From assembly GCA_973895155.1 (NCBI GenBank), contig OZ316895.1:6994184-7058183 (forward strand): a stretch of 64,000 bases of DNA, written 5' to 3'. The notes below the pieces were generated by a model that ran no database searches, had not been told where the DNA came from, and saw only the letters and a program-made list of their open reading frames with translations. The translations under genes and the position numbers were made by a program. Origin of the DNA: Marsupella aquatica (lineage: Eukaryota > Plantae > Marchantiophyta). Below are positions 10,938-34,370 of this stretch, one piece after another (position 1 is the stretch's first letter; every line of letters begins with the position of its first letter).

Positions 10938-11152
10938 CCCATTGAGACCTGCATTCCAAACTCACACCATTGTCTCAGAAAGCAATCTTTGTGAATATCA
11001 ACCGTCGCACGATGCGTTGTGGTTGACGTACAATAACAAAGTAACCAACAAACTTCTCACGTATCAACCGTCGCAAGTTGCGTTGTGGTTGATAGGCTTG
11101 AATTCCAAATAGACGTAGCTCCCCTCTTTGTGTAGTCAAACAAGAAGAAGGG

Positions 11153-11170
11153 TCCCCGGCAGCGGCGCCA
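11153..11170 (-). promoter_or_regulatory. Primer-binding site (Athila-type, tRNA-Asp-like) of E3
   Basis: TGGCGCCGCTGCCGGGGA on the minus strand, 19 nt from the LTR end. Confidence 0.8.
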
Positions 11171-11600
11171 AAAACAAGGACCACACTTATGTCACTTGCC
11201 TATCCAACGATTAATACGTGCAAACCGTACTTTTTCTTGCTTAAACCGTTGGTATCATATTACGGGGTCGTGGAGGGACGCTATTTGGAGGATTTCCACA
11301 CCTAAGGTTGAGTATGTTTGATTCCGCTCCCGGAAGTGTACTTTTTGATCAAGTCTACCGACTGGTCTCTCCGTTTTTGATCAAGTCCAAGGGACTGGTC
11401 CTACCATCTACAACTCATGCCCACCGGGTGAGTGCTGTCACCACCCCCCTCCTCTCTTGGGCAAGCATACCAACATTTACAATAAGATTTGAACACTAGT
11501 GACAAGGGCAAATGTTTCCACAATGACACCGACCACACGCACTAGGGGAGGAAAACAAACAACACAAGCAACCACAAGTGACACACAAAATATTGGAACC

Positions 11601-12218: not shown

Positions 12219-12549
12219 TCATGCATCCCGAAATCAAATCCTCAATCACCAAATCCCGTCACCCGTAGCAATGTCAATTCCCTGGCCCGAAACAGCCCCC
12301 GCATCCCGATCAATCGATTACTCTCAATTCCCCCAGAAGCCACTCCGTGCTGCTGCCGCTAATGCCCGGAAGAATCAGGCCACCAAGCCCCACCAATCTA
12401 CCATGAGAGAGAGCTTCAAAAATAATTAGAAGGTGAGAGCTTTCGGCAAGGTGTTGGGAGAGAACTTCGAGTTTTGCTTTCGGCAAGGAGAGGGTCGTGC
12501 AAAAGAGGGAGAAAAGAAGGGAAGAAAAAAAACCAAAAAAATCCCCCCT

Positions 12550-13290
12550 GACACCTCCTTTCGCCTTGCGCCCCGGGCCCTCCTTTAATGGCCCTCCCCG
12601 GTGCCCTCTTTCGCCTGGCTTGCGGGAGCCCTAAATGCCCTGGGCACGCAGCCCTATGGGCTCGCCCCGGCCACCTGCCATCTCACTTTTCTCACGGGAG
12701 TCCCGGCTGCGCTCTCGCCCCGATGCCCCCCTGCGCCACTCGCGGGAGCACTTAGTGCTCGGCTACTCGCGGTTCAAACGGGGGATTTAATTCCCCCCCG
12801 ACAGCCCTCTTTCGCCTCACGGCCACCCCCCGTAGCGCCCTCTTTCGCCTGGCTCGCGGGAGCCCTAAATGCCCTGGGCACGTAGCCCTATGGGCTCACG
12901 GGAGGGTTTTAATACCCCCCCTTTACTCCTCGGCTGCGGCCCGGCTGCCCTTGCCCTGCTCGCGGGAGCCCTTACCTGGGGATTCCACGTGGCGGCCCTA
13001 GGGCTGCCCCTTATGGGCCCTTAAGTGCTCGCCCACTGCTAGGCCACTTAAGGGGTATTTAACCCCCCTCCGCGACCTTCCTGCACCGGCCTCCCTACTT
13101 GGTACTCGCGGTGCCCCTTAAGGGGGAATTTTAATTTCTCCCCCACCCTCGGCGCCTCGCTTCCTTCAGCTCGCGGGGCTCCCCTCAAACGGGGGATTTA
13201 ATTCCCCCCTTTCTTCTCCTGAACGCGGCCCTATGCAGGGCTCGCGACAGCCTCCTCCCTGTCCAGCCCGGCTCCGGCTGCCCATAAAAA
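12550..13290. repeat. GC-rich internally repetitive block in the E3 LTR
   Basis: ctctttcgcctggc(t/c)gcgggagccctaaatgccctgggcacg at ~12606 and ~12840; caaacgggggatttaattccccc at ~12775 and ~13186; many ctcgcgg motifs. Confidence 0.7.
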
Positions 13291-13544
13291 AAACTTCCCC
13301 CTAATCACACTGCCGGGGTCACCTCTACTCAAAAACTTCCTTGCTCCCGGTCCTGTTTTATTTCTTCTTCCCACCAACCTTGCTATTGAGTTCTCTAAAA
13401 ATGGCCCTAAAATAATGGGGAGTCCCCCAAAGGCAGGGCCCTCCTCCCAACATAATTGCAGAACAATTAGGGGATAAAAATAAATACAGTTCTTCGGTCA
13501 CAGGTGATGAAAAAATGGTTATTTACAATGGTTATTTACACTGC

Positions 13545-16500
13545 TGTGATGCCTAGACAGGAATCACTCGGCCAGTTAAGTGGGTAAAGCAGGAAGGCAC
13601 CCTAGGAACACCTTAGTATAGGGACAAAACAAGGAAAATATAAACCATTAGGGGCAACCATGGAACCCGGGCCGAGGCCGGAGGTAAGGACGCTGAGGGT
13701 GAAAACTCGATTAGGGTTAGGGCTCGTTAAGCGTCGGCGGCTAGGAAGGATCAACGGGAAGAAGGACCGGCAGAGGAGAGGGGTAAGGAGCGCTTGCAGG
13801 AGATGGTGGCTCATTTGCGAGCACGAACTAGGCAGACGACTACGGGAGGCCAACTACTGTCAGCTGCTTAGGCAAGCACTCGGGGAGAGAGTAGATACCG
13901 ACAATCGACCTAAGGAGGGTATGAGCAACGTCAATCAAGCGGCACATTTCTGGGGATGCCTGTTCGAACGGGCAACTGAGTACATCAAGACTTACGAGGA
14001 CGAGGAATCAGAAAGGGCAGCTCGAGAACGGCAGGAGCTCGCTCGATTGTGGGAGCTGCAGAAGACAGCTTTCTTAGGAGGCGAACTCATCAAGGACGAG
14101 TTCCTGTGGACGCCTACTTCCAATCAACTCGACGATCTTCTGTTTTGCAAAGATAGCGTCGTCGGCATCCGAGAGGCCATCAAGAACTGCAATGACATAC
14201 ACTGGGAATTAAAGGGTAGCACGGAAAGGTGGACCCAGGCAACGGTGCTAGGAGAAACCTCCACAGCAGCAGAGATGAAGAGGAAGGGAGCCGTCAACGA
14301 TGAAGCCACCCCGGAAAAAAGAACGAGGTCGGCGGCACCAAAGAAGCCAGCCGAGCAGCAGAGCAGGAGGCAGGGAGAAGCCGAAGAGGAGGAGGTCGAT
14401 CCCATCAAGGTCATTCCAACCAGGGATGACACCTGGAAGGGCTGGGCGGCAACCCTACCGGTGGAGGTGCAACTACATTTTGCACGGGAGGAGGATGCAT
14501 GCTTCACGGCCATGCAGACCAAGAAGTACCAAGGCTTCATGGCCGGATCCGGCTTAGAGGCCTTTGTAAGATTACCATGGCTGAAGCCGGAGGTACCGGA
14601 GTCAGACCTATTAGAATTCGTGGGGTCATGGGAACCCGAGACCAATTGCACGAGGATATATGGGAAGGATTTCTATCTTACTCCCAAGGTAATTGCCGAA
14701 GTGTTTGGCTTGCCGATAGGCAATAAGACCAAAGTTGATACCAGGAAGACCTTGCCTGACAAGGAGTTCCGGTCGTTCCCCGGGCCATCAACAAAGAATG
14801 GCTTCTTCCGGAACACCTGCACCAACCCGCACATAGGAGAGATGATCGACTTCTTGCGGGTGACCATGCATTGTAACTTGCCGAGGGCAGAGATCGGCAA
14901 GGCACAGGTCTATCTGGCAGAAAGGCCAGACCCAAGCCGGGACTACAACGGGTACCTCCTCAACCAATTGAAGAAGATCTTAAAGGAGGAGCAACAGGTA
15001 ATCGGCATGGGGAGCGTGTCGCGGCTTGGCTATCACATGCCGCTGTTGTGCCGGTATGCCAGAGGTCAGACTTTTGCCCCGGTACTTCCCCTGCAGGTAA
15101 GGGCACCCGAGGAAGCTCCAACACCGAGGCCGTTGGCTGAGAAGCCTCAACCACCTGTTAGCCCTACGATCGAGCAGGTGTTTAGGCCCAGGAAGGAGGA
15201 CTTGCCGATGCAGCAACCAGGCATGCAGAGTCTGTTGAAACTACTGGAGAACGAAAAGAAATCGGCATCGGCAACAACAACGGCAACGGCAACAATGCAG
15301 GACACTACTACAGAGGTAGGCCTACACCGGCTCACAAGAGAAAACCCCTTTGCTGGAGACAAGGAGAGAATCAGGCCGGAATCCAAGCCCGGTGTTCGAA
15401 TGTATGTGGGAATCTCAAGCTCCGAATCTGAGGCAGAATTGCCTGAAGCTCCTACCGACGAAGAGGAGAGGGAGAAGCCGGACGGCCAAGAAGTAGAGGA
15501 GGCAGTGGAGGACTGCAGCCATGATAATTCCGGCTATGGGTCGGACCATCACGTCCCAGGAGTAAGGACCTGTGGCCGGTTTGTCCCCACACTTCCAAGG
15601 GTAGTGCGAGGGGACCCCAACCAGCAGAGTAGCCCTGAGTCTCCCCCACCAGATGTTGCTCCCCCGAGCTTCGACGGCATAAAACAGACGGTGCAGGAAT
15701 TTCAGGAGCGAATCAAGCAGGAAGAGGAGGCAGCCCTGGCTAGGGAAAAGGATTTACCAGGAGGAGATTGGCCGGAGGACATCAGGCGGCTAGCCAAAAA
15801 AGGAAGCAAACCTCTAGCCACGATTGAAGAGATCCGCAAGACGGCTTGGGAGCAGAGGCCGCGATGGGCGATGCCGATTACTTCTACTTACTCCACCTAC
15901 GCTAAGAATAGAGCCATGGAGTATGGTGAGATGTGTGGGGAACTTGCGCTCGGCATCTTTGGAGAGGAGTTGGAGGTAGGACCCTTTTTCCATAGGGAGC
16001 AGTTGGAGAAGCACCAATTAGAAGAAGCGGTGGCTTTAGAGAGAAGCAAGAAGGACGAGGTCATTCGGCGGCTTAGGAGGATGGAAGCCGAGATTGAAGA
16101 TCTAAGGGCGGCCAAGAAAGCCCAAGATGAACTGCGGATTAAACGACATGAGCTGAACATCATGCAGGGGCAGTTGGACACCGCGCAGGCTGATAATCAG
16201 AATATCAAGGATAAACTGACTCAGACGTAGGGAGAGTTGGCCGACACGATCAAAGAGAGGGAGAAGTGGAAGCAAGAGCTGAAGAATACAGAGGAGGCCC
16301 ACATAACAGCCAACAGCCGGGCCATGGCGGAGACCCAAAGAAAGGAATGGGCGTTGAAGGGGGAGCTCGAGAAAATCCGCGGAGCCCTTGAGCAGAAGGA
16401 GGCCGAGTTAGGGAAATCCTATCAAGGGATTATGGCGCTACAGCAGGAGCTTGCGTCCCTGACGGCCAGCTTCAAGGCCGACCTAAGGGAGAAGGACGAG

Positions 16501-18207
16501 ATGCTCGAACAGACTTACGCCAAGATGAACCAGATGGAGTCTGTCATCATTGCAGAGCTCGACAAGGAGCTAAGAGCAACCCAGGAGGAGAGGACTACCT
16601 TGAAACAAGAACGGGAGGAAGCCCAGAAGGAACTAGAGGAGGCACGCAAGGACCTGGATGAGACCCAGGAGGAGTTGGAGGAAATCACGAGGAAGATGGA
16701 GAACCTCCAGCGGCGGGCCGACAACCAAACGGAGCGGCTGAAGAAACAAGCCGCAGTATTTAAGTGCTTGTCTTCATCAGGCCCAACTCCAATTGGGGCA
16801 ACCAAGTTACCAGGAGTGGTACTGGCCGAAGAAAAAGCCGCGCCACCTGCACCAGTGCCGGAAGTAAGTGGGAAGGGGAAGGGACCAGCTGCCGAACCAG
16901 AAAAGAAGAAGAAACGGAAACCTTCAGGGTCAAAGAGTAATCCGACTCCACAAGCCGTGATGACCAAGGAGGTAGAACTAGCACCATCCTCCGGCATGAA
17001 TACGGCAATAGATCCCGCTATCATCACAGGTGGGGGTGGTGCGGCCCAAGCCGAACTACTCAGTAATGAGGCCGGTATCCCAGATCCGCCTCTTGAGCAG
17101 GCCGGGAAGACCCAAGCCGTGGCTGAGGCCGTAACCGGTTCCCGAGCCGATGCCGACGCCGATGGTGGACCCAATCAGGGCGATGGAGAGTTGACTCAGT
17201 CAAGGGCAGGTAATCTGTCAGAGAATGAACCTACGGCAGTGGCTGAGGAGGAAGCGTTGGGGGCGTCCATTGAGGATCCACCACCGGTGTCGTGACGGTG
17301 CAAGGGCGCCGTTCCTTTTAGGGAGGGCGGACGTGGAGGGAGGAGGCGTGAGTGGGCAGGGCGGGCGCTGATCTCCAAGTTTAGGATTAGGATCAGGACC
17401 AGGAGCGGCCCTGACACTTAGCTTAGTGGGATTGCGGTTCCACTGGTAGGAGCAACACTTGTGCTCCTGCCTTGCTGTACATAGGTAGATTCGGGCAAGT
17501 AGATTACTGTTAAGTAGATTAGGCTTACGATGCAAAGAATGGCGGATCCACTACCAGGATAAGTACCTGGGCAGCGGGGAGCTCAGGGCCTCTTCTTTAG
17601 CAAGTTTTTAGTTTGCACCAGCCGGGCTGGGATCAAGTAGTACGAGAAGCTCTCGGTTAGTCATACAGTGACCCTTGTGTATATTCATGTTTCCTCATGC
17701 CTAAGAGCTGAATAGAGTTGGCCTCACGGCTTAGTTCGCGAAAGTTGTGTATGAGATGTACTGTTTGTATGGCAAGTGCATGGTATGACTTAGTCAGAAT
17801 GAGTCATTTTGCTATTTGTGTGTCGCATTAACTTGTGTGAAGAGTGCCCACATCAACCAAAAGGAAGGAAAGTAAGCAGGGGAGTGAGAGTTGGATGTGT
17901 CGAGCTGAGAGAGGTCTTAGCGGCTTAACCAAGCCTATTGGGGATCATTCCGGCGGCGGAATCCAAACATACCTAACAAGACGGAGGGGAAGACAGGGGA
18001 AGGCCTAGATTAGGCCGGCTACGTATCTCATGACCCGATGAAGGATCTGTCCAGTATATGTGTGTAAAATGTTAATAGTAGTAGTAGAAGGTTAGCAGCG
18101 TCCCATGCCGCTAAGCCGCGGAAACGGCCTCGCCAAGCGCGAAACCTGCGGGAATCGGCTTGAGCTGGGGGGTTTCTTGGGTTTAGGGAGCCATGGCACG
18201 CACCACA
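13545..18207 (+). mobile_element. A2: complete 4663-bp TG...CA solo-LTR-like coding unit
   Basis: TGTGATGCC...GCACCACA with a perfect 5-bp TSD ACTGC (13540-13544, 18208-18212); the flanks rejoin into the E3 LTR. Confidence 0.93.
13660..17295 (+). pseudogene. Unit-A ORF, ~1211 codons with one premature stop: putative plant-TE accessory domain plus long coiled coil
   Basis: ORFs 13660-16230 and 16237-17295 are in frame across a TAG that is CAA (Gln) in A3. GLEAFVRLPW...EFVGSW...YGKDFYLTPKVIAEVFGLP recalls PMD/ATHILA-ORF1-like folds. E/K/L/A-rich coiled coil, KKKKRK NLS-like run. Confidence 0.8.
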
Positions 18208-21200
18208 ACTGCGCGACACTCCGCAACCAAGTTATTCATGATTTTATGTGACGGGGACCCCGTCACAGCAAGGGGCATAACTCATTAAATGTCCTTATTT
18301 GTGACCAAAAAGGTTTTGGGTTTAATGAAGTGGGGTTCATGGAGGTTGGACCATGGAGGGATGGTCAAGATATTCTTGGCCATTACTAAATCCATCTATA
18401 AAAGGTCAAGATGCACAAAGGTAGATTTGTACCGGTCCTTTTTCATACATTAGAGCTAGGTCACATTCTTGCACCGGGAATATTGCATTTTAGGACCGGA
18501 TATAATGTTGGGCAACCTTAATCCTGATTACGGCGTGCAATAAAATGTTACTACCGACCATGTATGTGCAAATATGACCATTCATTGCCTAAGTTGGCCA
18601 TGCAGTAACACTTTGTAGCTTTGTCCCACTTTGGGTGACACTCAACGGCTCACTCAAACGGTAAGGCTGAGTGGCTTCCCCTAATTTGGTTTCAGGCACT
18701 AAACTTCACTTTGGGAGTCTCTTTGGAGTTTTCGCCATTGTCATTGAACTTAGAACGTGAGGGGTGGAGTGTTCGGGGTTTTACGTAGGGTTTTCCTTTC
18801 AGTGTTGCCCACTTTTTGCGACCATTGCGGAGTGAACTTCCCACGCGTTATGTGCTTGTTTATGCTCTCGAGGAGCAGTGTTCAGGCAGTTGCGGTGATC
18901 TAACCTTGCGCTTGCAGTCTACTCATAGACCTGCATTCCTGCTCGATCTCCTTTAGGGACATTTAGTTTTTGGCTGGTAGGGCGAAGAAGGTTGTGGCTA
19001 CTGCAACGTTCGTGAGGAGCTTGTCGGAGTTTGAGGAGTCGGAGGTTGGGGTTTCTTCAAGGTTTTGGGTGACAATCTCGGTCACAGTTGTGGTATAGAC
19101 CCTTTTGCTCGTTATGGGCTCATTGGGAGGTCCTTCAGTTGTCAAGCTGCCGTTGAGCTGGTGAAGTTGCATGCGGGTTGCATCTGTTCTGTGGACACAG
19201 TCAGTGTGGGAATCCATATTTTCATAGTGCTTGTTCTTGCAAACTGGGAGCCGAGAGTTTGGAGTCGGGAGCTAAGAAGGGTATTGTTAGGCTTCAATTA
19301 CTCTGTGGTTTTCTCCAGCTCCATGGTACAGTTTCAATGTTAATGCTTTGTCCTTGTGCTGGTCTAGGTAGCGCGAGCTTCTACCTATTGCGCCCTCTTG
19401 CTGTAAGCGTATTGAGCTGCCAACTGAGTGATTCATACCTGTAGCTGCTTACGCGTGATCAAGAGATTGAACAAATGCCTAGTGCTGTCCAGCAGGAGAA
19501 AACTCTTTTTGGTCATGATCGGGCGTTGGAATATAACTAAGTGTGGCAGAGCAACACGGGGAGCTGTAGAGTTGCAGACAAGACGCAACTACAGAGGAGG
19601 CATTGGGAAGGACACAACGGTGCGGTGAAGGTACAAGGACCGTGGACCCTAACTTGTTTGCTGCCTTGGGAGGATCCGGAGAGCCCGAGGCGACATGCTT
19701 CATTGAGCCTGAGCTAGCTGAATCCAATCCAGGAGTTGTTGCGCTAAGGTGAGACTTTGAGTTTAGGGTTGCTTCAGTGTCCGAGTAGGTTTTCTCTTTG
19801 CGTCGGCAGCTAGAAGGTAAGCTTGGGGGCTTTACAAAGGGTTAGTGTTGCGGACTTTCCCTCCTGGACGTTGTGTGTCTTCATTTGCAACTTGTTTGTG
19901 GACCTGTGATCCTAAGATTGTCAAAATTGTTGTGGCCGCACTGACAACTTGATGACGCGTTTTGTGGATGCACCGTTAGTAATCGCGAGTACAGCTCTCC
20001 AACAATTGCACTTACCATTTTTGACCACCTTGCATGATGTCCATCCGTGGGCTGGACCCCAAGAAGTAGATTTCGGTAGATTTTGGTAGATTTTGTCTCT
20101 GCCCCCGGTCCTCATTTTGTGCAATGTCCGCCTGGCACTTGGTTCTTGATCCCTACATTATCGTCTGCCGCTCGGCTGCTTGCGGAAGGGATCAAACAGA
20201 TTGGAGGTGCTTGGTCTTTTCATTTTGAGTGTCAGAGTTTAGGAGGACAGCTTGCACCATCGCCGACAAGAATGACCTGCTTGCAGAACAAGAGGGACGA
20301 GCGTGAGCTGCTTGTAGAATAGGAGATTGACCGCGAGCACGAGCTGCTTGAAAAGAGGAGACTGAGGGCAACCTGCTTCTTTGTTGCTACTCTGGTTGCG
20401 CTGCTACATTGGTTGTTGATCTTCACCCACCCACTTGCCTACTCAATTGACAGAGTACAGCTTTGTCTCTGCGTCTGTTACTGCTGTCTTTGTCCCTCCC
20501 CTTGAAATTGTGGGCCTTAAAAGGTCAGTAAGTTGGCTTATGTAGTTTTTATGTCCCTCCGCTATGTCAATGCGTGTTTCATTGCATCAGGGCATCAGTC
20601 GTTGTTTGCCTATAACCGGACTGTTCATTCTCTGTCCACTCATTTGATGTAATTCTTCCCATTGCCGCCCAATGCTATGGCGCCCATGCTACAATTTGTG
20701 GTTTTTGTCTAAGCACAAATCCTCTCTATGCCTGGTCTCTGTGTCCCGTCATTTGGATTGATTGTGTAGACGTTTCCTCTTCTCCCAGTCCTTGTCATCC
20801 ACCAGCCAAAGCACATTGGATTGTTTTCAAAGGAGGGCTGTGTAGTTTGGAGGGTTTGATCTATGCAGCGGATTTGAGCAGATTGGCGGTTGTTAGTTTC
20901 TTCTTGTAAAACCTGTCTGTCTTTTCTGCTTTTGGCCATGCTCCTTCACTTCTTGCTGCAAGCTCAATGTGCTTCAGCTATGGCAATATTCACTTACCCT
21001 ATCCCAATGGCACTACCGTGAGCTATAGGACAGCCAACAGAAGCAGATTGTATCGATTGCATGTAAGTCAGGGTATTTTATGTATTGCGGAACAACTGTC
21101 CAAGTTTGCTGCAATGGCCGGTCTTGCGCAGCTGAATGAGCCAATTTCATTTTCCCTGTGCACTTCTATTTCTCAGAGAATTCCCTGGTCATGCTCATTT

Positions 21201-21762
21201 CCCCCAGAGTTAGAAAACAAAGAAGAAGAGCTGACTAATTGTAATTCCAATCCATATCCTGATCGGTCAAGGATTGTTCACTACATTGGCCTTGTCATTG
21301 GCCGAGGTCACCAAATTTTGCTTGGTTTCATTCCTGTGGAGCACTGCTGTGATGGATTTGTCATAGCATTCTGCAAACTCTCACGGTTTGCTTATGGCCA
21401 TTATTTGCAATTTGCTGCTACTAATATGTCTTCTTCTGAGCAGCATACACCAGAAGTAGCAATAGTGGAGGTTTAACTGCACATCAACACATCTAGTGAA
21501 CTACCTCTCTGCTGCTCACTGGAGGGTGAGACTTTCACTCTTTCTGGATATTGTAGTTTGTAAGCAAGTTGATTAGGAGTGTTTCATGCTATGTTTACAC
21601 TGTGACCCCTAGCTGGAACCAATGGAATGACACAGTGAGTGGGAACTGATAATTTAAGGTTGGTTGCTGTTGGTGAGGCAAGTACAGCTCCTACTCACCT
21701 TGCTGATCGAAGGTGCTTATCAGAGGACGTGAACACACGACATCTCCACAAAAGCAACACTT

Positions 21763-22212
21763 ATGGTGAGGACCCGCAACGCTGAACATGTGCGGCTTGC
21801 ACGCAAGGCAGAGATGTTGCGCCTTGAGTATGTCAGACTTGGGATCCTTCCAGCCCAGTTTGCATGGTACTTTGAGTACCCAGTTGTTGCCAGGAACAAC
21901 TACAGCCGGCCTGTACCTGCTTCTCCACCCTTCCCAACATCCTTGGTATTTCTGTCTCTCATACATGACCCGCCACAAATTAGGGCCCAAGGGTGTGTGC
22001 ACAGTTGCCAATATGACTGTCCTGCCTGTAGGGCTTCTGGCCTAGAGTTGGATGACCGTTCTCTTGGATGTCGGTTTTTTCACAGAGCACAATGTATCAT
22101 CTGGAACCACTCGTCATCCTGTAGTGTGCCTGGCGATGTCACTTGTCCTGCCCTCCCAGACCCCACCACCGGTCACTTTGGTGTCTACACATGTTTGGAT
22201 CACACGCTCTAG
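21763..22212 (+). CDS. CACTA cargo 1: small protein with a Cys/His-rich PHD/RING-like C-terminus
   Basis: ATG ORF of 149 aa; CVHSC..DCPAC...GCRFFHRAQC...YTCLDH pattern. Confidence 0.5.
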   Translation: MVRTRNAEHVRLARKAEMLRLEYVRLGILPAQFAWYFEYPVVARNNYSRPVPASPPFPTSLVFLSLIHDPPQIRAQGCVHSCQYDCPACRASGLELDDRSLGCRFFHRAQCIIWNHSSSCSVPGDVTCPALPDPTTGHFGVYTCLDHTL

Positions 22213-22881
22213 AGGACCACTTGTGTCACCGCATGCACAAACCAGAGACCATTGACCTATAACTTAACACTTTGACTTGAACAGAGAGGATATTTACTTA
22301 AGATTTTGAATTATGACCAATTTTGGGTCCAGGGTTTAGGGTCAACAGTACATAACTTATCCTATTATGGCTGCACTAAGTACAATATCCTAATTTAAGA
22401 GGCTAGCAAGCTCACTTAAAAGTCTCCTTTCAAAGACTGGAATTAATGGGCCATGTGATAACCTGGAAAAAGTGATTTCTGCCTAACTTATTTGTCTCAT
22501 TCACTATCATAGCCTATTTAGGATGTATAAATTACAACCCTGATCACAGTGCTTGATACCAATCCTGTTCAAAAAATGCCTGTTTTACATGTCACGACTG
22601 TTATATGTGATTCAAATGCATTAAATCTTGTTGCAGATCTCCTTTGGTGAATCATAGCCACAAAATTGAGGTGTAGGTGGAGCTATTGTACGAGGGGACC
22701 AGTTTTTAGTGTGGGCTCAACAAACCAAAAAGTATGTCTACTCTGCACATGTGTGTGAACATTTCATTGCAGTAGCAATTGCCACTCTAGTCTATATGCT
22801 ACACTGTACTTTTTGTACACTGCACTAAATTGTATTGTCTGTGCACTCTGCTAAATTATACTATCTGTCTCATGCGTAGGC

Positions 22882-23562
22882 ATGGCACGCCCTAAAATCC
22901 GAGCCAAGAAGCGGGGGATAGAGGTGAGCAACACAGGTGTAGTTGGGCCAGATGGTAGTAACTTCTCCGCAAGTCAGATTTTCCAGAAGGCAGCTCATTG
23001 TTGTGCCATTTGTGACGATGGTGGTGGCGTAGCCATATGTGAGGGCCCTTGCATGAGGCATTTCCACCTCAACCCGGAGTCTGACCTTGCTGCAGAAAAC
23101 AACTGTCTAGGGGTGGGCCTCCCGTCAGCACACCAGGGAGGCTGGATGTGCACTGATTGTTTGGAGAAGCAGGCTAAGTGTGCACAGTGTGGGAAGTTGG
23201 GGTCTTATGAGGGCTCTGTTGATGCTCCACCACTTGTTAGGAAATGCCCTGACAGATATTGTGTGAGGTTCTTTTGTTTTTCATGTTTGCCCGATCTTGC
23301 CACAGCTTGCCCACTTCATAAGTGCAAGGCATGTGGTCAGCATGATGAAGATTTATGGGTGGACATAGTCCACTGTGTTAGGTGTCCCACCATGTGGCAC
23401 TTTCATTGTTTGAAGGAGCGTCAAGCAGAAGGCTATGCTTGTGACAGACACATCTATGATCACTCTGCACATGGTGTTGATCAATGGATCTTTTATTGTC
23501 ATCGCCATGCCATAGATCCTACTTTGCACACTCCCATGAGAGATCACATTTCTTGGCTTTGA
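22882..23562 (+). CDS. CACTA cargo 2: stand-alone EDM2/NSD-type multi-PHD finger protein
   Basis: CAICDDGG..ICEGPCMRHFH...CTDC...KCAQCGKLGS...CPLHKCKAC...CVRCPTMWHFHCL...FYCHRHAIDPTLHTPMRDHI parallels the EDM2 PHD region as recalled (CAICDNGG..CEGSCLRSFH...CPLHKC..C...CRRCP..YH..CL...YC..HEID..L.TP.RDH). Basic N-terminus. Confidence 0.82.
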   Translation: MARPKIRAKKRGIEVSNTGVVGPDGSNFSASQIFQKAAHCCAICDDGGGVAICEGPCMRHFHLNPESDLAAENNCLGVGLPSAHQGGWMCTDCLEKQAKCAQCGKLGSYEGSVDAPPLVRKCPDRYCVRFFCFSCLPDLATACPLHKCKACGQHDEDLWVDIVHCVRCPTMWHFHCLKERQAEGYACDRHIYDHSAHGVDQWIFYCHRHAIDPTLHTPMRDHISWL

Positions 23563-24160
23563 ACCTGAATAATGTACATGCATAGTGCACCTGATGTGGA
23601 TACCTTGGAGATTGCAGACATTCCAATTTTGAGAAGAAGGACCTCTGTAGGAGAGGATGCTTAGGCAACAAGTACCCTAAGTTCATTACTTGTTCCTGGG
23701 TACATGCCTTCAAAAACTCCCCTTAAGCCTTCTAGGAACTTTTTTAACTCTGCAATCATTTTGATCACGACTTACATGACACTGCTTAAATTAAATCAGG
23801 ACTTCTCATTATGAGCATATAAGTTACAAGGCTATTTAATTTGCGAGAATTCCCTTAAAGTGTACCAACATTTTGTATTCTCATTGAATGTCTGCCCATT
23901 TACAACATCTGTATGTGGCATCACAAAACAATTGCACTTGTCACCTTCAATATTGTGAAGGCACATATTCAAACTATGAGGTGCATGCTTGCAGGTGTCT
24001 AGTACGTTTGTCCCAATATTTCTCCCGTTTGGAATCGGAGCAGAGACTCACCAGACGATTGGACTGGACCAAGTTATAAACGCAGCATTTTAAGGGCCCT
24101 CCGATTATCAGGTGAACGCATTATCTTCTGGTCTGCAGTGATTAGGTGGCCCGTGTGTAC

Positions 24161-25009
24161 ATGGCCTCTAGGAAACATACAAAGGTTGACCACCCGCCTC
24201 TGTTGGCTGGAATCAAAGCCATTTTGATTCCTGGCCACTATGGGTTCACCCAAGTGAGTTGGCCAATCGTACAAAAACGATTCTCAGAGTTCCATGGGAT
24301 TGAAGTCAAGGACATCACTCCACAAACTACACATGTTGTTGCGGGGACATGGCTGGATGTGATGAACAAGTGGTCATGGTCCTTCATTGATTCTGCCATT
24401 ACCAACCAAGGTCTAAAAGTAGTTGAAGTCTCTTGGCTGACCGATTCTGTTAAACATAGGTGTGTACAGAGTACTGAGCAATATGAGTTGTGGGAGAGTG
24501 AGGAGGCCACTGCAGAGGCTTTGGCTGAAAAGGAAGCCTATGAAGCAGCGGCAGAGAAACCCAACTTTGCTTCTGTCCAATATGGACCTGTTGTCAACAT
24601 AGGACACCATCCTATGCGTGCAGATGCTATATTGAATGAGCATGGCAAGGAGAGAAATACCATTATGAAGGGGTTCAGTGTGGTATTTGCAGAAGAAGGA
24701 ATTGGGGAGACTAAGTGCAGACTGTACAAGTCCATAGTTGTTGAGCTAGGTGGGACAGTGGAGGAGAGTCTAACAGAAACCTCCACTCATGTTGTAGGTC
24801 TGTCATACATGAAAATATGCAGAAAATTCTTTAAGACAATAGTGCGTGATTTTGTCATGAACAACAATCTTTGGGTGCTTTCCCCTGATTGGCTTCTGGA
24901 ATCAGCAGCTAGAGGGAAGCGACAGCATGCTTGGGACTTTGATATTTTTGAGGCCTGGCCCTCCAAGATTCAGCGGAGATGTATGCTTAGCAAAGGTGGG
25001 AGAGAGTGA
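24161..25009 (+). CDS. CACTA cargo 3: tandem BRCT domain protein
   Basis: Two repeats with BRCT hallmarks: ...TTHVVA...VVEVSWLTDSV and ...LGGTVEESLTETSTHVV...VLSPDWLLESA. ATG at 24161. Confidence 0.8.
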   Translation: MASRKHTKVDHPPLLAGIKAILIPGHYGFTQVSWPIVQKRFSEFHGIEVKDITPQTTHVVAGTWLDVMNKWSWSFIDSAITNQGLKVVEVSWLTDSVKHRCVQSTEQYELWESEEATAEALAEKEAYEAAAEKPNFASVQYGPVVNIGHHPMRADAILNEHGKERNTIMKGFSVVFAEEGIGETKCRLYKSIVVELGGTVEESLTETSTHVVGLSYMKICRKFFKTIVRDFVMNNNLWVLSPDWLLESAARGKRQHAWDFDIFEAWPSKIQRRCMLSKGGRE

Positions 25010-25185
25010 GGAGTAGGAGTCCCTCATATTTTTGTATAAATCACAATTTTGTAATAAATGTGATCCTTGAACTAACTCATCTTGTCATGGTTGGTCGCAG
25101 TTGAAGTGATTGTTGTTTCCTGCTGCGTCGGGTGTGACTGTGAATCTACTTGCTGGGCTCTGTTTGGTTGAAGACTTTGGTGGGT

Positions 25186-25719
25186 ATGCTGCCTCTTCCA
25201 GACCGTCAGGCCCTATGTAGGGTCCTCCTACGGGTTGCATCGTGCATGGCTACTGCTTGGGCTTACTTGTGTGGATTGGTAACCAGACAGAGTGTAGCTC
25301 CATCCGAGATAATGTCTGCAGACCTTGGATGTGTTGTGAATGCTGTGGTGAATGAGGATGCACAGTCGGAAGAGGACATTTACTTTTCAGCAGATGAGTT
25401 AGACAAGCACGATGCTGTAGGTGGTTCCTTGTTGCCTGATTTGGCAGATGATATAGTTCTTACACATGTCTGGCCGAGGGTTCTTGTGGTGTCTGGCGCA
25501 CAAGATATCTGCAAATATAGACTAATTAGTACCCAGTGGAGGGACTTGGTAGCAACATGTGCACCATGGAGGGCACTGCTGCCACTGCTTGTAGGCACGG
25601 ATCGAAGACCACCATGGCATGAGCAGGGTTTAGACCTTGATGACTTAATGTACATGCCTGAGTACCTCAGGGCTGAGTGCCATCGACAACAGGATTGGTA
25701 TCCGTATTTGATGTGGTAG
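25186..25719 (+). CDS. CACTA cargo 4: small F-box-like protein
   Basis: SLLPDLADDIVLTHVWPRV...YRLISTQWRDLV fits the F-box consensus; no recognisable C-terminal substrate domain. Start codon uncertain. Confidence 0.6.
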   Translation: MLPLPDRQALCRVLLRVASCMATAWAYLCGLVTRQSVAPSEIMSADLGCVVNAVVNEDAQSEEDIYFSADELDKHDAVGGSLLPDLADDIVLTHVWPRVLVVSGAQDICKYRLISTQWRDLVATCAPWRALLPLLVGTDRRPPWHEQGLDLDDLMYMPEYLRAECHRQQDWYPYLMW

Positions 25720-26045
25720 TAAGATGAGAACATCTCACACCGGTCTCACACCTGGCACCTGTGTCTATGACTATACATGATTGGACTCTGATATGGTCAT
25801 GGATGTACGTGCAGAGGCAGTACATGTGAGGACAGCGGAGGAGTTGACACCCTCAAACATTTAGGAATTTTGTCTCATTCACTTGAGAATAGGTACATGA
25901 CTCAGGCACCTATATTTTTTGTTTTTTTGTTTTTTTGGAACGTTACGTATTTTGGCAAGTACAGTCGGGGGTGAAATCCTTAACAGGAAGTGTATTTTTC
26001 ACTTGCATAATAAAATGACAGGGTGCTGAGTGCGTGTGTATAGTG

Positions 26046-29000
26046 ATGGCTCCAAGGTTGCCTCTTCACAACCCATTTAGGATTAGGCATCATGATTCTA
26101 AATTGTGGATGCGTGAACAAGCTCGGGCCGCCCAAGGTAGGAGTAGGAGGATGAGATGCCCATGCACACAGTGCCAAGGATTCAAGTCGTTGAGTTTGAA
26201 CACTGTGCACCTTCACCTGCTGCGGCATGAAAGGCACCCTCGGTGGAGGGTTTGGAATGTACCAGCAGAAGAAGACTCCTCTGATGAAGAGTGGAGAGCT
26301 GACTTTGTGGATTCTAATACAGCTAGGTGTAGAGACTACGTAGAGCAGGACATAGACTGTGCAGAGGATGGTCCTGGGGTCCAACATGAGAACGTGGATG
26401 ACCAAGATGGAGAGGCAGAGGCAGTCACTGAGGACGGTGGGATGGATGTCCCAAGAATGGTTCAAGAGATTTTTGAAGACCTTGATGCTTTTTACGACAC
26501 AGTGGAATCAGAAGAGGACAATGAACCGCAGCCACACATTGGCGACGGCCAAGCTGAACCTGACTTTGACATTGGGGAAGGTGCAGCAAAGAGGGAGTGG
26601 GTGTTTGGGGGCCCAAAACACATCAAAGAAGCTTGCATTCCTATCTACGAGGGGTCGAACTGCTCCAAGCTGGGTTTTGTCGTGTTGTTGTTGAACATCT
26701 GTGGCAATCACAATGTTCCCAATATATTTGTGACAGAGTTGTTGACCTTCCTGCGCCGAAATGTGTTACCAGATGGTAATTCAATTCCAAAAAATATGTA
26801 CGAGGCTAGGAAATTGATGTCTAACCTTGGGCTGAACTATGTGTCTATTGACGCATGCCCTGATGGGTGTGTTCTCTTTCGCAAAGAGCATGCAGATAAA
26901 TTGGCATGCCCTCATTGTGGTAAGCACAGGTACAAGAATGTAGGGAAATGTACACATCCTGCCAAGGTTCTTCGTCATTTTCCTCTCATTCCTAGACTAC
27001 AACGTCTATTTAGATGCCCTGCCATTTCCAAGCTGATGACATGGACTCCTGATAACAAGAGCAGTGATGGCCTGCAGCGTCACATTGGAGATTCCAACCA
27101 TTGGAAATTTGTTGATGAGAGGTGGCCACAGTTTGCTGCAGAGAAGCGGAACTTTCGATTTGGTCTATCACTGGATGGAGTAAACCCATTTGGAGACAAA
27201 AACAACCGTTATTCATGTTGGCCGGTTACGCTGCTAAATTACAACCTTCCCCCATGGATGACTACAAAGAGGTTTTTTGTCATGATGGTGCTGTTAATCC
27301 CTGGACCAGCTTCTATGACCGAGCAATTCATAGATATCATGTTGGCTCCAACAGTGGAAGAGTGGAAGACTTTGTGGATAGAAGGGGTGTTAACCCATGA
27401 TGTTCTGAAGGGGCTTCTTCAACCCAGCCCCTTTAGACTGCATGCAATTTGTTTGCTGGATATAGCAGATTACCCAGGCCATGGCATCATATCTGGACGA
27501 GTGACAAAGGGCTATGTGGGGTGCACACCATGTGGGAAAAATGTGACAAGTGAGTGGTCGCATGCCCTGCACAGTATGAAATTTCAGGGGCATAGAAGGT
27601 ATCTGCCTGTTGATCATCCTTACAGGCACACACGGTCTCAAATTGCACACTTCAACAACAAAACAGAGCTTCGTGGCCCACCACAGAGGGTCACCAGAGA
27701 GCAAGTCCTGAGGTGGGCAGCCAGGAAGGCTGATTGGGATAAGAGAAGTGCCACTGATCGAGAACTTGAGGATCCAGTGGTGAAACACGGTGTGAAAAGA
27801 CAGACCTTGATGGACTTGGAGTTGGAGTACTGGAGGGTAATGTACTTAGCCTCCAGCCCCTGTATGATTGCAATTTTAGATTGGAGCAATGGTGGATTGA
27901 TGTTGGTTACAATCCTCCTCTGTGGTTAATTAGTGTTTCTGTTGTTGAAGTCTTTGCTTTGTGGAGTGCAGGAATTCGAGCCCAGCAAACACAATGTGGA
28001 CGTCATGCACATTGAGAAAAATATTTGTGAGAGCTTGCTGAAGTTCTTGTCGGGTGAGAAAGATACAGGAGCAGTTCGAGCTGATATGCAACAGAAGGGG
28101 ATTCGCCCTCACCTTTGGTTGAAGCCCCATGCAAGCAATCCCAATGTACTTCTCAAGTTCCAAGCTCCCTATGTGTGCACACAGGATGAATGGAAGACAT
28201 TCTTGTATAGATTGAGCTGTCTGAAAGTGCCCTCTGGCTATGCTGGTGCCTTCAAGAAGCATATTACAAAGAATAAACTTGGCAGTATGAAAACACATGA
28301 CTACCATGTGTTGATGCAACACATTCTGCCCCTATGCCTCAGAGGTCTCATGCAGAAACCAGTCCGTAATGTCATTCTTCGACTGTGCAATGTATTTCGC
28401 CGTATATGTGTGAAAGTGTGGGATCCCCAAGGATTGGAGCAGTTGAAGCAGGATGCTGCTTATGTCCTCTGTGACTTGGAGATATACTTCCCCCCTGCTT
28501 TCTTTGATGTTATGACTCATCTCCTAATCCATGTGGTAGAAGAGCTAGGGCAGTATGGGCCAGTCAGTACCAGATGGATGTACCCTATGGAGCGATACAT
28601 GAAGTTGTTGAAAGGTCATGTGAGAACATACTACAGGCCAGAGGCTTCCATGGCATTGGGGTACATTAAGGATGAGACGTTGGGATTCCTAACAGAGTAC
28701 ATGGCTGGGTCTGGTGAAGCTATGACAAGAGTTTGGAAATCTGGTGAAGATGATGGAGTGAGTGGCGAGGTTGTTGAAGGTGTGGCCGGGACGTGCTATT
28801 CAGCTGCCTGTTGCGATTCGAGACAAGGCTCATTCATATGTGCTGGCAAACACAGAGCCTATGCAACCATGGTGGAGGTGAGTGATTGAATTGACTTGCC
28901 TTTGTTGTGATGCTTCTTGTCTGTTCCAAGGGTGATCTTAGGTTGTCATGTGTTGTTTAGACCTAACTATGCCTGTACCTCATATTGCAGGGAATATGAT

Positions 29001-29750
29001 ATGCAAAAAGCTGCACACTCTGGGCAGCAGGATCCCTTCCCACAGTTCGAGCAGTGGATTCGGGTGACAATTCGAGAGCATAGTAGACATCACCCAGATA
29101 TGGAGAAGGATTTGTATCTTCTATCTGTGCCACCACGATTGTCTATTCTGACCTACAAGCGGATGAGAGCTTATGGAAATCATTATCGAGTGAGGGATGA
29201 GCAGGGTGACCATTGTGTATCATATGATTGTGGTTTGATTTCTGTGTTTGAGCAGAGAACCTCTGAAGAACAGAGGGGGTGGATGAAGATGGGTTACGTG
29301 GGGGAGTTGACCGACATTTGGGTGTTGAATTATGGTAACACAAGTGTCCCAGTGATATTGATGAAGGGATCATGGGTGAAATCAGAGTGGCAGAGACCAA
29401 GGGCCACCATGAAGCGTGATCATGATGGGTTCTTGTTGGCCAATTTTAGGTCCAGAGTACCAGAATGGTCTGAGCCTTTTGTTTTCCCTAGCCAAGTTGA
29501 ACAGGCTTTCTTTGCAGATGTGGAGGAGTCACATGGCTGGAGGGTGGTATGCCATAGCCAAGCACGGAATAGGCGGATGGATGGAAGTAAAGTAGAGTTC
29601 AGTTTGGATGACCATGCTGCATTCGAGCATCCTAGTCATGAGACTGTACTTCCAACTCGGGCAGGGACTGACTACATCCCCTTAACATTGAGAGAGACAT
29701 ATGATGAACCTGGGCAAATGGAATATGATGAGGTTGATGATTTGCAATAG
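26046..29750 (+). pseudogene. CACTA TnpD/Tnp2 transposase (Transpos_assoc, Transposase_21, DUF4218, DUF4216), two introns, one frameshift
   Basis: RCPCTQC..HLLRH; DACPDGC..CPHCG; LRHFPLIPRLQRLF; DGVNPF..SCWPV..YNLPP; DVMHIEKN; KTHDYH; RWMYPMERYM; EPFVFPSQV. GT-AG introns 27837-27971 and 28878-28990. Frameshift at ~28788: the KAHSYVLAN..PW motif lies in the shifted frame. Confidence 0.9.
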
Positions 29751-29926
29751 GCAACAGCTGGCGATTGGCAAGTATGAGGTTGAGGATGACTACCTGCACA
29801 GAGTCACAGAACGGGAATTGCTGCCTGGAATGATGTTTAGGACAGTTGGATATGCATGAAATTGATTGATACTTTGAATTTAGTGTGCTGATTCCCCTGT
29901 TTGGTTGTGGGTGCTGTGCAGAAGCT

Positions 29927-32900
29927 ATGGGGGAAGAGGGTGATGACATGGAGACAGACATGGGGCTTGGAGAGGGGTGAAGAGGAAAGATTGGATATGG
30001 ATGGAGACCCAGATGCAGGGGGCTCACAGAAAAATGCACCTGTGCAGGATGCACAGGGCCCTCATCAAGTCCCAGGTAGGTGGGCAGCTAGAGAGAAATC
30101 ACATAATCCATACCCTAGAAGGAGCCAGAGTTATTGGCAAGGGACGCCTGATAATTATGATGATGACTATGATGGAGCAGAAGATGGATGGGATGAATAT
30201 GAACACCCAGAGCGTGGTAGAGACGGGTACAGAGGGCAATGGAAAGGTGAGGAGGATGATTGGACAAGTAAGTGCCTTGTGCTAGTGATTTTGTGATGGT
30301 AGTAGAGATTTAGCTCAATATGGACTTATCTGATGTGTAGCTAGGGCAAAGAGTTTATCTTACAGGTCCATGAGTGTGGCATGTACCTGTTGGTATGCAG
30401 ACTCTGATTGGGACAATCACGAAAACAACAAAGGCCATCCACGTTCAGATAGGCGGCAATCATTCACAGGCGGGAGAAACGGCCCTAATTCATCAAGACA
30501 AAGCAATAGGACAGGTGGTCCAGAACCATCTATGCGCCAAGGGAGAGGTAACTTGGTCATTGCAGAATTGCTCTGAATTCCAATGTATATTTGGCAGCAG
30601 GATTTATGATTCATACTTACCTAATGTAAGTGACTGTAAATGGATCCTGTAAATGTGCAGGGACTCCAGGGAGGTTTGGACAATGCAATCCAGGCCGTGG
30701 GGGGAGATCAGGCCGTGGAGGGACCCCAGGCCGTGGGGGGACACCAGGCCGTGGAGGGACACCTAGTAGCGCTTCAGGGAGTACCAAGGCAGGAGACAGT
30801 AACAAATTTGGTAAAGTAGAAGTGAATTCCGAAGGTTGGATAACTCCCACATGTGATGGTAAGAACCGTTGGCATTCTGACCTAAGAGGAGAAGTATTGC
30901 GTTGGTTAGATTTGAGCATTACAGAGTTTAGGAGTCAGAACAAAGCTGATTGGGCTGCTATCTGCAAGGACATTCTTGAACGGTGGGACTATGTTGGTAA
31001 TGATGGTAAGGGCCCAGTTGAAGATTGCATATCAGATTATGCAATGAGGATTTTGAAACAAGAGAGGCATAGGTTGAAAAGGATGTGGATAGACAATGGT
31101 TCTAACAGGAGAATGCCACCACCCCCATCATTGGAACTGGATCAATGGACACGGTTAATCAAAGGGTTCATGTCGGAGGCTGGACAGAGCAAGAGTGAAC
31201 TGATGTCAAATGCTCGAGGCAAAGTGAAACACCTTTCACAGGCTAGGAGAGGAAGTTATGCTCCAGTGAAAGAACAATTGGTAAGGCAGTGACATGCCTG
31301 ATAGTAAGCCTCAAACTTAATCTTGCTACCATTATTACATTTTCATTGACAATCAACACTTGGTTTCATTCATATGTATGTTGATGTGGACTGCAGAAGA
31401 AATTGACAGGTGAAGAACCATCAGCACAAGAAGTGAGAGAGGAGTTCATGAAACAAAGGAGTGAGGTGACAAGTGTGACTTCCAAACAGGTGATTATGTT
31501 GTAATTCTGTATGTTCTGTGACTATTTGGCCTTGAGCATCAGAAAGAAATGTAATAGGAAGTAAGCAACCAGTTCTTGGGGACAGTTATCTGAGATATGT
31601 AAGCTGTGTTATGACAGGGAACTGTTACAACTCTCACAGAGATGTGTGAACAGTTGAAGTCATTAGAGTGTGGACTCCCTCGAGTGGAAAGTAAATTGGC
31701 TGATCGTTTGGATATTGTGGAGGCATCTGTAGCGAACCTTCTTGCATCAGTGGAATCTAATTTCAAGCTTGTGATTGAAAAATTGGGTGGTTCCCAACCA
31801 AACAATGAGGGCAACATTGTACAAAGTGTGCCCTTGTTAACAAAAAAGGGAATTGGCAAATCTGACACAGGTATGGAAATGACACCGGCCCATTGTTCAT
31901 TGTGTCCTATGTTCAAATGTTAGAAGTAAGTTTTCATGAATTGAGTGAATGGTTTGAATGCAGGAAGAGTGGAGGCAGAGAAGGACCCTGTAATCAGTAA
32001 GCAGAAGGGCAAGAAGGTTGCTGAGACAGGTAACCTGCTATGATCCAGTAGATTACATTTGAAAAGTGCATGGAGTTTTGTGAAGCTTAAGCCGGTTGCA
32101 GGTAATCTTTTCTGTAAGAACTGGTTGGATGAACTGGGATCTGAAGTGACATCATGATTGATGTATCAGGTGATTCAAAGAGCAATAATGAAGAAGATGT
32201 GCCCAGTGCCTCAGTGACCATAGCCAAGGAGGTATCAGGTAAGCTGATGCTTTAAATTCCTCTATATGAATGTTGAGCAACAATTCAGTGGTTAATAGAT
32301 TCAACCTGAATATTGTGGTGTGTTTATTGATCAACAGAAGCAGACATGGAGCATATGGCAATGGCAAAGAAGGGGAAGAAGGCTGTTCATAATGGTAAGG
32401 AGATAGTGACAACTTTGTGGTTGGTGACATGTACATTTAGCACATGTGATGAGTGATTGACTTATGTTGGACATGACACTGAATTGTAGTTGATGCAGAG
32501 TTGACAGACTCTCAACCAAGTGGGAGCAGGGTGAAGCGACGTCAAAACTTGGGAGCAACATTGGATGCAAGTAAGATTGTAGATGCTTTAATTGAAGCAA
32601 GTACAATGTTGGCAGATACTGAGATGATGTCGCAGGGAAATCCTGCTACACAATCAGAAGTGTCAAATATGGATGCAGATTCTTTGAAGAAGAGTGTAGC
32701 CAATTCTCGATCACCAGCACAAAACACTCGTGCCAAAGTCATTACTCGCAACCAAGGTATGAATAATGTCATGTATAAGCCACCCAGGAAAGCCAAGAAA
32801 AACAGCCAGGGTAAGGTGGAGGTGATAGCCACAGCAGAGCCAGTCCATAATCTTCTATCATGGGAGGATGACTCGCAGGTATGTGTGGGTACAGGCATTT

Positions 32901-33091
32901 TGCAACCGGATCATGCAAAATTCCATGGCAAAGTGGTCCCGGATGACCATGTAGTAGTGTTGTTGACTACAGTGATTGTATCTGCTTGTAATTTGCCATT
33001 TCCGAATAGAGACGATGATCCACCTCAGGAAATAATTGCAGATGTAGTAGGATCTCTTGTGCTTTGGCCATCAGAGTGTGTTAGTCTGTAG
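29927..33091 (+). CDS. CACTA TnpA-like second gene, multi-exon (boundaries approximate)
   Basis: Exon 30661-31280 has PGRGG repeats and LKQERHRLKRMW..PPP..DQWTRLI..KSELMSNARGKV. Last exon has FHGKVVPDDHVVV..LPFP..VVGSLVLWP (Tnp1/En/Spm-type C-terminus). Several short GT-AG-bounded exons lie between. Confidence 0.7.
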
Positions 33092-33594
33092 TGACTGAAT
33101 GCAAGTGTAGATAGAATCATGTGAATTGTGTCACATTTTGACATTGCCTTGGAAAGATCCAAGAAATATCTGTACCAATTTTTCCATTTGGTAAAGAGGA
33201 TGAAGGAGCCGTTGTGTGTGACATTGATATTTCTGAATTCTGTATGTATGAAACAAGTGATTGATGTCAAACTATGGCTCTATGGTGATTGTCTATGATA
33301 CTTGAATCTGTTTTGTATCATTTCAGTATTAGTGTGTATGGTATAGAGGAATACTTTGTGACCTTCTTTGTAGTCTATGAAGTTTGAATCTGTGAATTCA
33401 TATTAGTGTACATGGTATAGAAGATGGCTTTCTGAAACTATGTATTCTAATGTTAACATGATGAATGGTGAACTTATAGAGTGAGTTCATTCCAAGTACA
33501 CAATAAAACATGAATGCAATATGTTATTTGTGCACAAGAGTGGGTTCATTCCAAGTAGTATAGTGGGGTCTTCATCACTCATATCCAGTTGACA

Positions 33595-33922
33595 TGAAAG
33601 ACTTATACATACCCCACAAAGTATATTTAAAGACTACCCTCCATAACTTTTTTAGTCATTCCCAACGACTCACCATCTCAGCCCATAAAAGACTGAAAAC
33701 GACTCACCAAAGCTACCCACACAAAGACTAAAATAGACTGAAAATCCAGTCTATTAAACGACTTATAAACCAGTTCTATAAAGGACTCAGTTGATTATAG
33801 TAACAAAACATACGACTCGCAGTCCTATAAAGGACTGGAGTCCTTCCCAGTCGTTTCCAAGTCCTATACGGTACTGAATAGTCGTTTAATGGGGTCTAAA
33901 TACCCCCCGGTTTCTACTAGTG
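33595..33922. repeat. CACTA right subterminal repeats and TIR
   Basis: Many AAAGACT/ACGACT/AGGACT motifs in both orientations, ending ggtctaaataccccccggtttctactagtg. Confidence 0.85.
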
Positions 33923-34370
33923 TTGTATGGCAAGTGCATGATATGACTCAGTCAGAAGGAGTCATTTTGCTATTTGTGTGTCGCATTAACTTGTGTGAAG
34001 AGTGCCCACATCAACTAATAGATGAAGGAAAGTAAGCAAGGGAGTGAGAGTTGGATGTGTCGAGCTGAGAGAGGTCTTAGCAGCTTAACCAAGCCTATTG
34101 GGGATCATTCCGGCGGCGGAATCCAAATATACCTAACAAGAAGGAGGGGAAGACAAGGGAAGGCCTAGATTAGGCCGGCTACGTATCTCATGACCCGATG
34201 AAGGATCTGTCCAGTATATGTGTGTAAAATGTTAATAGTAGTAGTAGAAGGAGGTTAGCAGCGTCCCATGCCACTAAGCTGCGACAACGGCCTCGCCAAG
34301 CGCGAAACCTGCGGGAATCGGCTTGTGAAGGGGGGTTTCTGGGGTTTAGGGAGCCATGGGACGCACCACA

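Follow-up and report, generated by a model that had tools for sequence, protein, structure and literature searches.

Why should a CACTA transposon of a liverwort carry a row of intact open reading frames (ORFs) for chromatin-type proteins beside a transposase gene that is itself frameshifted? The question is raised by a stretch of 64 000 nucleotides of Marsupella aquatica DNA (GenBank assembly GCA_973895155.1, contig OZ316895.1, positions 6 994 184–7 058 183, forward strand), which is called the window throughout and whose first letter is position 1. Within it a CACTA element is bounded by terminal inverted repeats (TIRs), and four ORFs lie between the TIRs directly upstream of the TnpD transposase gene. 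The original prediction had seen in them a maintained counter-defence or integration toolkit. As the answer we give about an even chance to these being conserved accessory genes that would act in trans from intact copies, so that the element stays transcribed and mobile even where chromatin is silenced.

Accessory ORFs and their possible expression

The cassette and one further ORF upstream of it are as follows.

ORF1: 21763–22212, plus strand; 149 amino acids (aa), conserved Cys/His residues, outside any known family
ORF2: 22882–23562, plus strand; 226 aa, EDM2/NSD-type PHD array on its own, N-terminus resembling histone H3
ORF3: 24161–25009, plus strand; 282 aa, two BRCT domains
ORF4: 25186–25719, plus strand; 177 aa, with a probable F-box (approximately residues 83–129)
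Fifth ORF: 20967–21476, plus strand; 169 aa, no Pfam family

ORF1–ORF4 are all open on the same strand at the coordinates that had been claimed for them, and the last ends 326 nt upstream of the TnpD ATG. The 7.8 kb from 18209 to 26045 contain five plus-strand and no minus-strand ATG ORFs of at least 149 aa, whereas Markov simulations (n = 1000) average 0.07 such ORFs and never give more than 2; this cutoff was chosen after the fact as the length of the shortest of the four ORFs. The fifth ORF had not been included in the original prediction. In other copies one extra base at 21457, within this ORF, creates a perfect splice donor, and this ORF may be a spliced exon. A candidate splice acceptor was located shortly upstream of the ATG of each ORF and candidate donors at 19749 and 19817 (crude scores), an arrangement that fits one promoter combined with alternative splicing. 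Maize En/Spm makes its products from one promoter in this way, and the accessory ORFs would likewise be expressed from a single upstream promoter.

ORF2, a stand-alone EDM2-type PHD array

ORF2 carries the firmest part of the argument. It is matched by three NSD-type PHD models in Pfam (E values of 1.6e-5 to 6e-3, all below the curated cutoffs) and its profile matches NSD2 at E = 3e-9. When the profile was run against 1.84 billion representatives, short stand-alone proteins ranked first and EDM2-like proteins next; the cluster of P0077, one of the long matches, includes Arabidopsis EDM2. The earlier identification of an EDM2-like PHD array is thus borne out. Four homologs of nearly the same length (81, 74, 37 and 37% identity) begin like ORF2 and finish inside one shared RDHISW motif. 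Identity to the long EDM2-like proteins compared is 28–34%, in agreement with the earlier view that ORF2 is diverged from host genes and not freshly copied. The AlphaFold model is poor, with a predicted local distance difference test (pLDDT) value of 55, and its Foldseek matches are PZP/PHD domains at E = 0.002 or weaker.

The alignment comprised 158 rows, 28 of them short (260 aa or less) and 130 long. A Cys-type second finger together with a 20-residue deletion was found in 16 of the 28 short rows and in none of the long ones, 122 of which have the His-type second finger. In a careful tree of 44 rows picked from 143, a single clade (97/98 support, stem length 1.66; the bootstrap was not fully settled) unites 13 of the 14 stand-alone rows, with internal branches that exceed those among the EDM2 proteins of flowering plants. 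The clade sits on long branches, so its sister group is unsure. P0141 grouped with the stand-alone rows in a quick tree and apart from them in the careful one. Liverworts also have a second class of EDM2-like proteins, of 620–770 aa with a C-terminal PHD array (P0016, P0018, P0019 and P0023), and both trees place this class, weakly supported, closest to the stand-alone rows.

The records behind the 14 family rows that were looked up belong to Logan, JGI or ENA, with none in NCBI or UniRef; all are unnamed or hypothetical. Seven of the 21 family rows from outside the window continue into unrelated tails (judged by eye). Together with the origin of the records, these tails suggest a multi-copy gene with decaying transposon copies. 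Scans of metagenome, viral and prokaryote collections for the DNA context of relatives of ORF2 and TnpD were blank.

At transposons, EDM2 binds to chromatin marked by H3K9me2 and suppresses polyadenylation at early sites; it maintains the transcription of COPIA4 and represses Mu1 (PMC7529245, PMC3632883). ORF2 shares with Arabidopsis EDM2, a member of the ASI1–AIPP1–EDM2 complex, the same PHD array, in which almost every zinc ligand is kept, and the H-x-I...TP-x-RDH motif that closes it. It differs from it in being transposon-borne, in its length (226 aa against about 1300, at 29% identity), in lacking the RFTS and C-terminal domains (DNMT1-RFD was found in long matches), and in its 20-residue deletion and His-to-Cys ligand switch. 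Judged by these features, ORF2 is an EDM2 derivative and not an orthologue.

The N-terminus of ORF2 resembles the tail of histone H3. Against the H3 tail motif, the residues following the initiator Met (window 22885–22911) match at five of nine places, including A1, R2, K4, A7 and K9. At least four such matches at the first Met occur in eight of 22 family rows, six of 129 long rows and one of 80 ORFs of the window, namely ORF2; these counts exclude P0141 and, coming from related rows, are not to be read as probabilities. Among the nine family rows that start with Ala-Arg, the K4, A7 and K9 places match in 20 of 27 cases compared with 6.9 in shuffles. One subclade of the stand-alone family is without the motif. 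Co-folding of the 30 N-terminal residues of ORF2 with its own PHD array gave an uninformative score of 0.00. The H3 likeness is treated here as a lead and not as an established result.

ORF1, ORF3 and ORF4

ORF3 contains two stretches above the Pfam cutoff for BRCT (E = 1e-13; 51.7 bits versus a cutoff of 21.3), as expected from the tandem BRCT assigned to it at the outset, and its halves align to each other at 23% identity. One homolog cluster was found (P0005, 61% over 270 aa). A resemblance of the BRCT domains to plant polymerase lambda was considered; the matches in the PDB are weak and all to repair BRCTs: ligase IV (E = 0.006), BRCA1, Rtt107 and TdT. The predicted structure has a pLDDT of 32 and was left out of the argument.

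ORF1 has two full-length homologs (P0007, 55%; P0008, 53%) with a common MVRTR start and conserved Cys/His residues. It had been described as a Cys/His finger; no match for ORF1 was found in Pfam, the PDB or the ESM Atlas, and it falls into no known family. For ORF4 the proposed F-box is backed by an F-box cluster in the ESM Atlas (0.91, with a low shared-feature count) but falls short in Pfam, and there was no match in the PDB. Of the common theme that had been proposed for the four modules, the PHD and BRCT labels are solid, while the F-box is weak and ORF1 has no family.

Conservation and spread among copies

The stretch is contained in nine runs from seven studies under five organism labels, one of which may be the source of the window; no RNA run was listed among them, which carries no weight as to expression. 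Seven runs were compared, and figures of contig depth were used as hints only. The whole CACTA element including the cassette is covered in X1, X2 and X5 (30 of 30 bins each) and in X7 (27 of 30 bins), which together carry four organism labels, and ORF4 is covered in X4, X5, X8 and X9 over 25–28 of 29 bins. The ORFs are accordingly not confined to this copy, as the original prediction required. None of the 12 small indels listed, out of 115, falls within ORF1–ORF4.

A full-length contig over ORF4 (X8 record 16) shows 36 differences and one in-frame gap of three bases. Among the 30 differences listed of these 36, 14 are synonymous and 16 non-synonymous, which gives a ratio of non-synonymous to synonymous differences per site (pN/pS) of 0.34–0.45 (P = 0.004–0.026). 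Over ORF4, the loose ends that come from more distant copies keep the reading frame and differ mostly at third positions (judged by eye), contigs over ORF4 carry element-like flanks, and loose contig ends reveal diverged subfamilies within single runs.

These data bear on a neutral capture of host exon fragments of the Pack-CACTA type. CACTA elements are known to take up host fragments (PMC13317346), and this one also contains 13.7 kb of foreign DNA. Pack-CACTA elements resemble the present one in that CACTA ends enclose host-related sequence; they are non-autonomous and hold recent fragments (PMC13317346), whereas here TnpD and TnpA-like genes accompany old, conserved, whole ORFs. Near-identity to host exons, relaxed selection and a non-autonomous structure were not found with the proteins compared. 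Instead, ORF2 is only 28–34% identical to its closest long proteins, has its start and stop in common with family members down to 37% identity and belongs to a separate old clade; ORF1 and ORF3 have full-length homologs at 53–61%; and pN/pS in ORF4 lies below 1. Since there are full-length homologs, a separate ORF2 clade and a pN/pS below 1 in ORF4, the ORFs, as judged from their sequences, are not fresh neutral captures. Neutral Pack-CACTA capture appears to be largely refuted and is rated as very improbable.

Proposed function

The accessory proteins would act as follows if the preferred reading, activity in trans that keeps the element transcribed and mobile, is correct. ORF2 would bind histone H3 tails on H3K9me2-marked copies and, having kept the reader and lost the RFTS and C-terminal domains, would replace or compete with host EDM2; its H3-like N-terminus could serve as a decoy or a self-inhibiting tail. 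At breaks left by excision or insertion, ORF3 would bind repair proteins; ORF4 would recruit a host protein to the Skp1–Cullin–F-box (SCF) ligase and ORF1 is a predicted zinc-binding partner. A more specific version is tentative and, taken as a whole, on the unlikely side: an old lineage of plant CACTA elements would have a VANC-like counter-defence, assembled from reader and adaptor modules of the host, in which a minimal EDM2-derived H3K9me2 reader with an H3-mimicking tail hijacks or jams heterochromatin read-through, while the BRCT pair and the F-box steer repair and degradation.

The cassette might instead be maintained for transposition itself, with ORF2 tethering TnpD and TnpA to a chromatin type (target choice), ORF3 recruiting end-joining factors and silencing being unaffected. 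PHD readers guide other DDE systems, RAG2 being the example. The weak PDB matches of ORF3 are all to repair BRCTs, this copy is inserted into a long terminal repeat (LTR) within a repeat cluster, and the conservation at the protein level fits equally well. A single insertion site is, however, uninformative on preference; EDM2, the donor family, works on heterochromatin transcripts and not on integration; and an F-box is a poor fit. A role limited to transposition is considered rather unlikely. Should the role nevertheless be target choice, the cassette would provide a chromatin-reading accessory factor for a superfamily with poorly known insertion rules.

Several observations weigh against activity in trans as the explanation. 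Host EDM2-like proteins of bryophytes, liverworts among them, and of algae also start with Met-Ala-Arg, far upstream of the PHD array, so that part of the H3 likeness of ORF2 is either inherited or a nuclear signal. ORF2 is without the acidic stretch that precedes PHD1 in EDM2, and its mark preference may therefore differ. The Pfam match to the F-box in ORF4 has an E value of only 0.06–0.1 (13–14 bits versus a cutoff of 20.5). When all 40 listed variants of 93 in ORF4 are taken, pN/pS rises to 0.50–0.66 (P = 0.03–0.14). The distant homologs are known as proteins alone, so their location in CACTA elements is presumed. The four ORFs and TnpD are not joined on any single contig; the best bridging contig (X1 record 2) joins the spacer downstream of ORF4 to TnpD. 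An X1 contig at the depth of the main family skips 91 nt of ORF3 (24607–24697, replaced or deleted), without which ORF3 would encode a one-BRCT protein, and X5 lacks cover over 43 nt of ORF4, which amounts to a frameshift, although a 115-aa F-box ORF is still possible. The copies with these gaps are abundant and the TnpD contigs are apparently intact. Of the claim that the cassette is maintained, the signs of purifying selection stand (full-length homologs and a pN/pS below 1 in ORF4), whereas the abundant copies with frame-shifting gaps in ORF3 and ORF4 speak against it for these two genes. The cassette is family-wide, but individual genes in it may be decaying in certain lineages or not be needed in cis.

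The same gaps are what would be seen if this CACTA lineage had fairly recently taken up entire small genes, either of the host or from the accessory set of other mobile elements, and these were now dispensable passengers whose conservation dates from an earlier life. The distant homologs without DNA context would agree with this, and the accessory genes of Plavaka elements move between transposon types. However, none of the 14 family rows looked up is an annotated host gene and many family members are broken; moreover, the ORF4 contigs with element-like flanks diverge in frame and mostly synonymously, and diverged subfamilies exist inside single runs. Such a recent pickup is judged to be improbable.

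If activity in trans were correct, these small EDM2-type readers on transposons would represent an independent anti-silencing route, the second one known, aimed at histone marks and not at DNA motifs; in plants, protein-based anti-silencing by transposons has, in the available literature, been shown essentially for VANC alone. The products would also be small testable proteins (150–280 aa) for probing H3K9me2 reading by EDM2 and transposon activity in heterochromatin.

Comparison with known systems

Red-algal Plavaka elements, of the EnSpm/CACTA superfamily, carry a chromatin-type cassette of three genes, PAG1–3 (bioRxiv 10.1101/2025.02.11.637652). They share with the present element the superfamily, a length of 16–19 kb, a multi-gene cassette beside the transposase, one gene without known function and a chromatin role proposed without experiment. 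The PAG genes encode enzymes (adenine methylase–SET and ParB–2OG oxygenase), whereas the products here are non-enzymatic binders, accompanied by a plant TnpD with a TnpA-like partner in a land-plant host. No ORF gave a Pfam match to methylase–SET or ParB–2OG. Fungal EnSpm, ESTA and Plavaka elements carry TET/JBP (PMC12730594); these too are EnSpm elements with a captured chromatin gene and a proposed escape from silencing, but the gene is a single, fungal enzyme that erases DNA methylation, in contrast to the reader/adaptor set found here.

The plant models of extra transposon genes are VANC of VANDAL Mutator elements and the Ulp1 genes of Kaonashi (KIU) (PMC13317346, PMC6446971). As in the present case, a plant DNA transposon has extra genes, one of them captured from a host pathway and then conserved, and the model is one of trans-acting anti-silencing. 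VANC belongs to another superfamily, binds DNA motifs and has an experimentally shown effect; no likeness to VANC was found in any of ORF1–ORF4.

A CACTA element with a set of EDM2-type PHD, BRCT and F-box was not found in the literature, Repbase and subscription journals lying outside the search, and the main text of an Arabidopsis atlas of transposon products has no EDM2-type PHD, BRCT or F-box terms. In Table S6 of a survey that covered 775 clusters of active plant CACTA elements and was restricted to elements of 2–12 kb, there is one RTT107_BRCT_5 row and no PHD or F-box accessory row (PMC12973397). Because P0005 weakly matches RTT107_BRCT_5, a relative of the cassette may be hidden behind this row. 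The two Polytrichum CACTA clusters in its supplement have TIRs that differ from those of the present element. The suggestion that such a toolkit had not been described for CACTA elements thus holds for this module content and not for accessory chromatin genes in EnSpm as such, which Plavaka and fungal TET/JBP elements exemplify: cassettes of this kind are already known in EnSpm/Plavaka and only the present content appears to be undescribed.

Transposase genes and age of the copy

The transposition genes lie downstream of the cassette.

TnpD transposase: 26046–29750, plus strand; exons 26046–27836, 27972–28877 and 28991–29750 (splice model)
TnpA-like multi-exon gene: 29922–33091 (approximate boundaries), plus strand; weak Transposase_24, frames

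TnpD contains the Pfam domains Transposase_21 (E = 1.6e-59), DUF4218, DUF4216 and Transpos_assoc. The frameshift reported for it is real at one place, near 28786, where the X1 contigs differ at 28785; the apparent break at 27929/28005 is a GT–AG intron (27837–27971). In the TnpA-like gene the match to Transposase_24 is weak (E = 0.011–0.027), GACT-core subterminal repeats are present at both element ends and this copy is two bases short at 29969 relative to other copies. Summed over six gap-poor main X1 contigs, the divergence amounts to 24 of 5217 bases (0.46%); the element is young, one of many copies in its plant CACTA family. The presence of open ORFs beside a broken transposase was considered as proof of selection and rejected, since at so low a divergence 2.5 kb could stay open by chance.

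Element anatomy and surroundings

The remaining features of the element are listed from left to right.

Left target-site duplication TTG: 3881–3883, unstranded; 3-bp flank of the left TIR
Left TIR: 3884–3912, plus strand; perfect over 18 bp, extending to about 29 bp when one gap is allowed
GACT-core repeats of the left subterminal region: 3913–4558, plus strand
Nested insert of 13.7 kb: 4559–18257, unstranded; for the most part of Gypsy type (gag-pol in reverse, additional ORFs, LTR)
Right subterminal GACT-core repeats: 33630–33892, plus strand
Right TIR: 33893–33922, minus strand
Right target-site duplication TTG: 33923–33925, unstranded; same triplet as on the left

The 18-mer CACTA TIR has two matches in the window (3884 on the plus strand and, inverted, 33905–33922) compared with 0.02 expected. 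Short TIRs starting with CACTA, a 3-bp target-site duplication and the TnpD domains identify a CACTA/EnSpm element, inserted into a Gypsy-type LTR that is split at 3883/33923 within a repeat cluster. The TIRs are 30 kb apart. The block 4559–18257 appears not to be part of the CACTA proper, which spans only about 16 kb because these 13.7 kb are nested foreign DNA. The nested Gypsy-type DNA is 84–89% identical to the flanking Gypsy-type elements, and the insert has an 11-bp direct repeat at its borders. This repeat belongs to a 20-bp palindrome that recurs in the Gypsy element at about 45705. The insert seems to have entered by a microhomology-mediated event and not by ordinary LTR integration. 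In the left internal region (18258–20900) the depth of contigs is reduced and copies differ by several large gaps (e.g. 18310–19132 and 18364–19633), so that it is more variable than the cassette. A route through a miR820-like RNA was considered for the element and is unsupported, with neither an Rfam match nor a long hairpin in 18209–33922.

The Gypsy-type family has long extra ORFs (856 and 323 aa, with a coiled-coil C-terminus) without an informative Pfam match, located at 13660–17295 and 38139–40340; they recur in several copies and in both orientations. An array of 8-nt repeats adjoins an LTR end at 46800–47720 and possibly represents the subterminal repeats of another element. Further to the right lie two genes of kinds that point to a land plant. 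An intronless PLS-type PPR-DYW gene (54291–58103) contains eight repeat units of 303 nt, a recent expansion, and lies tail to tail with an L-type lectin receptor kinase gene on the minus strand (58819–60957).

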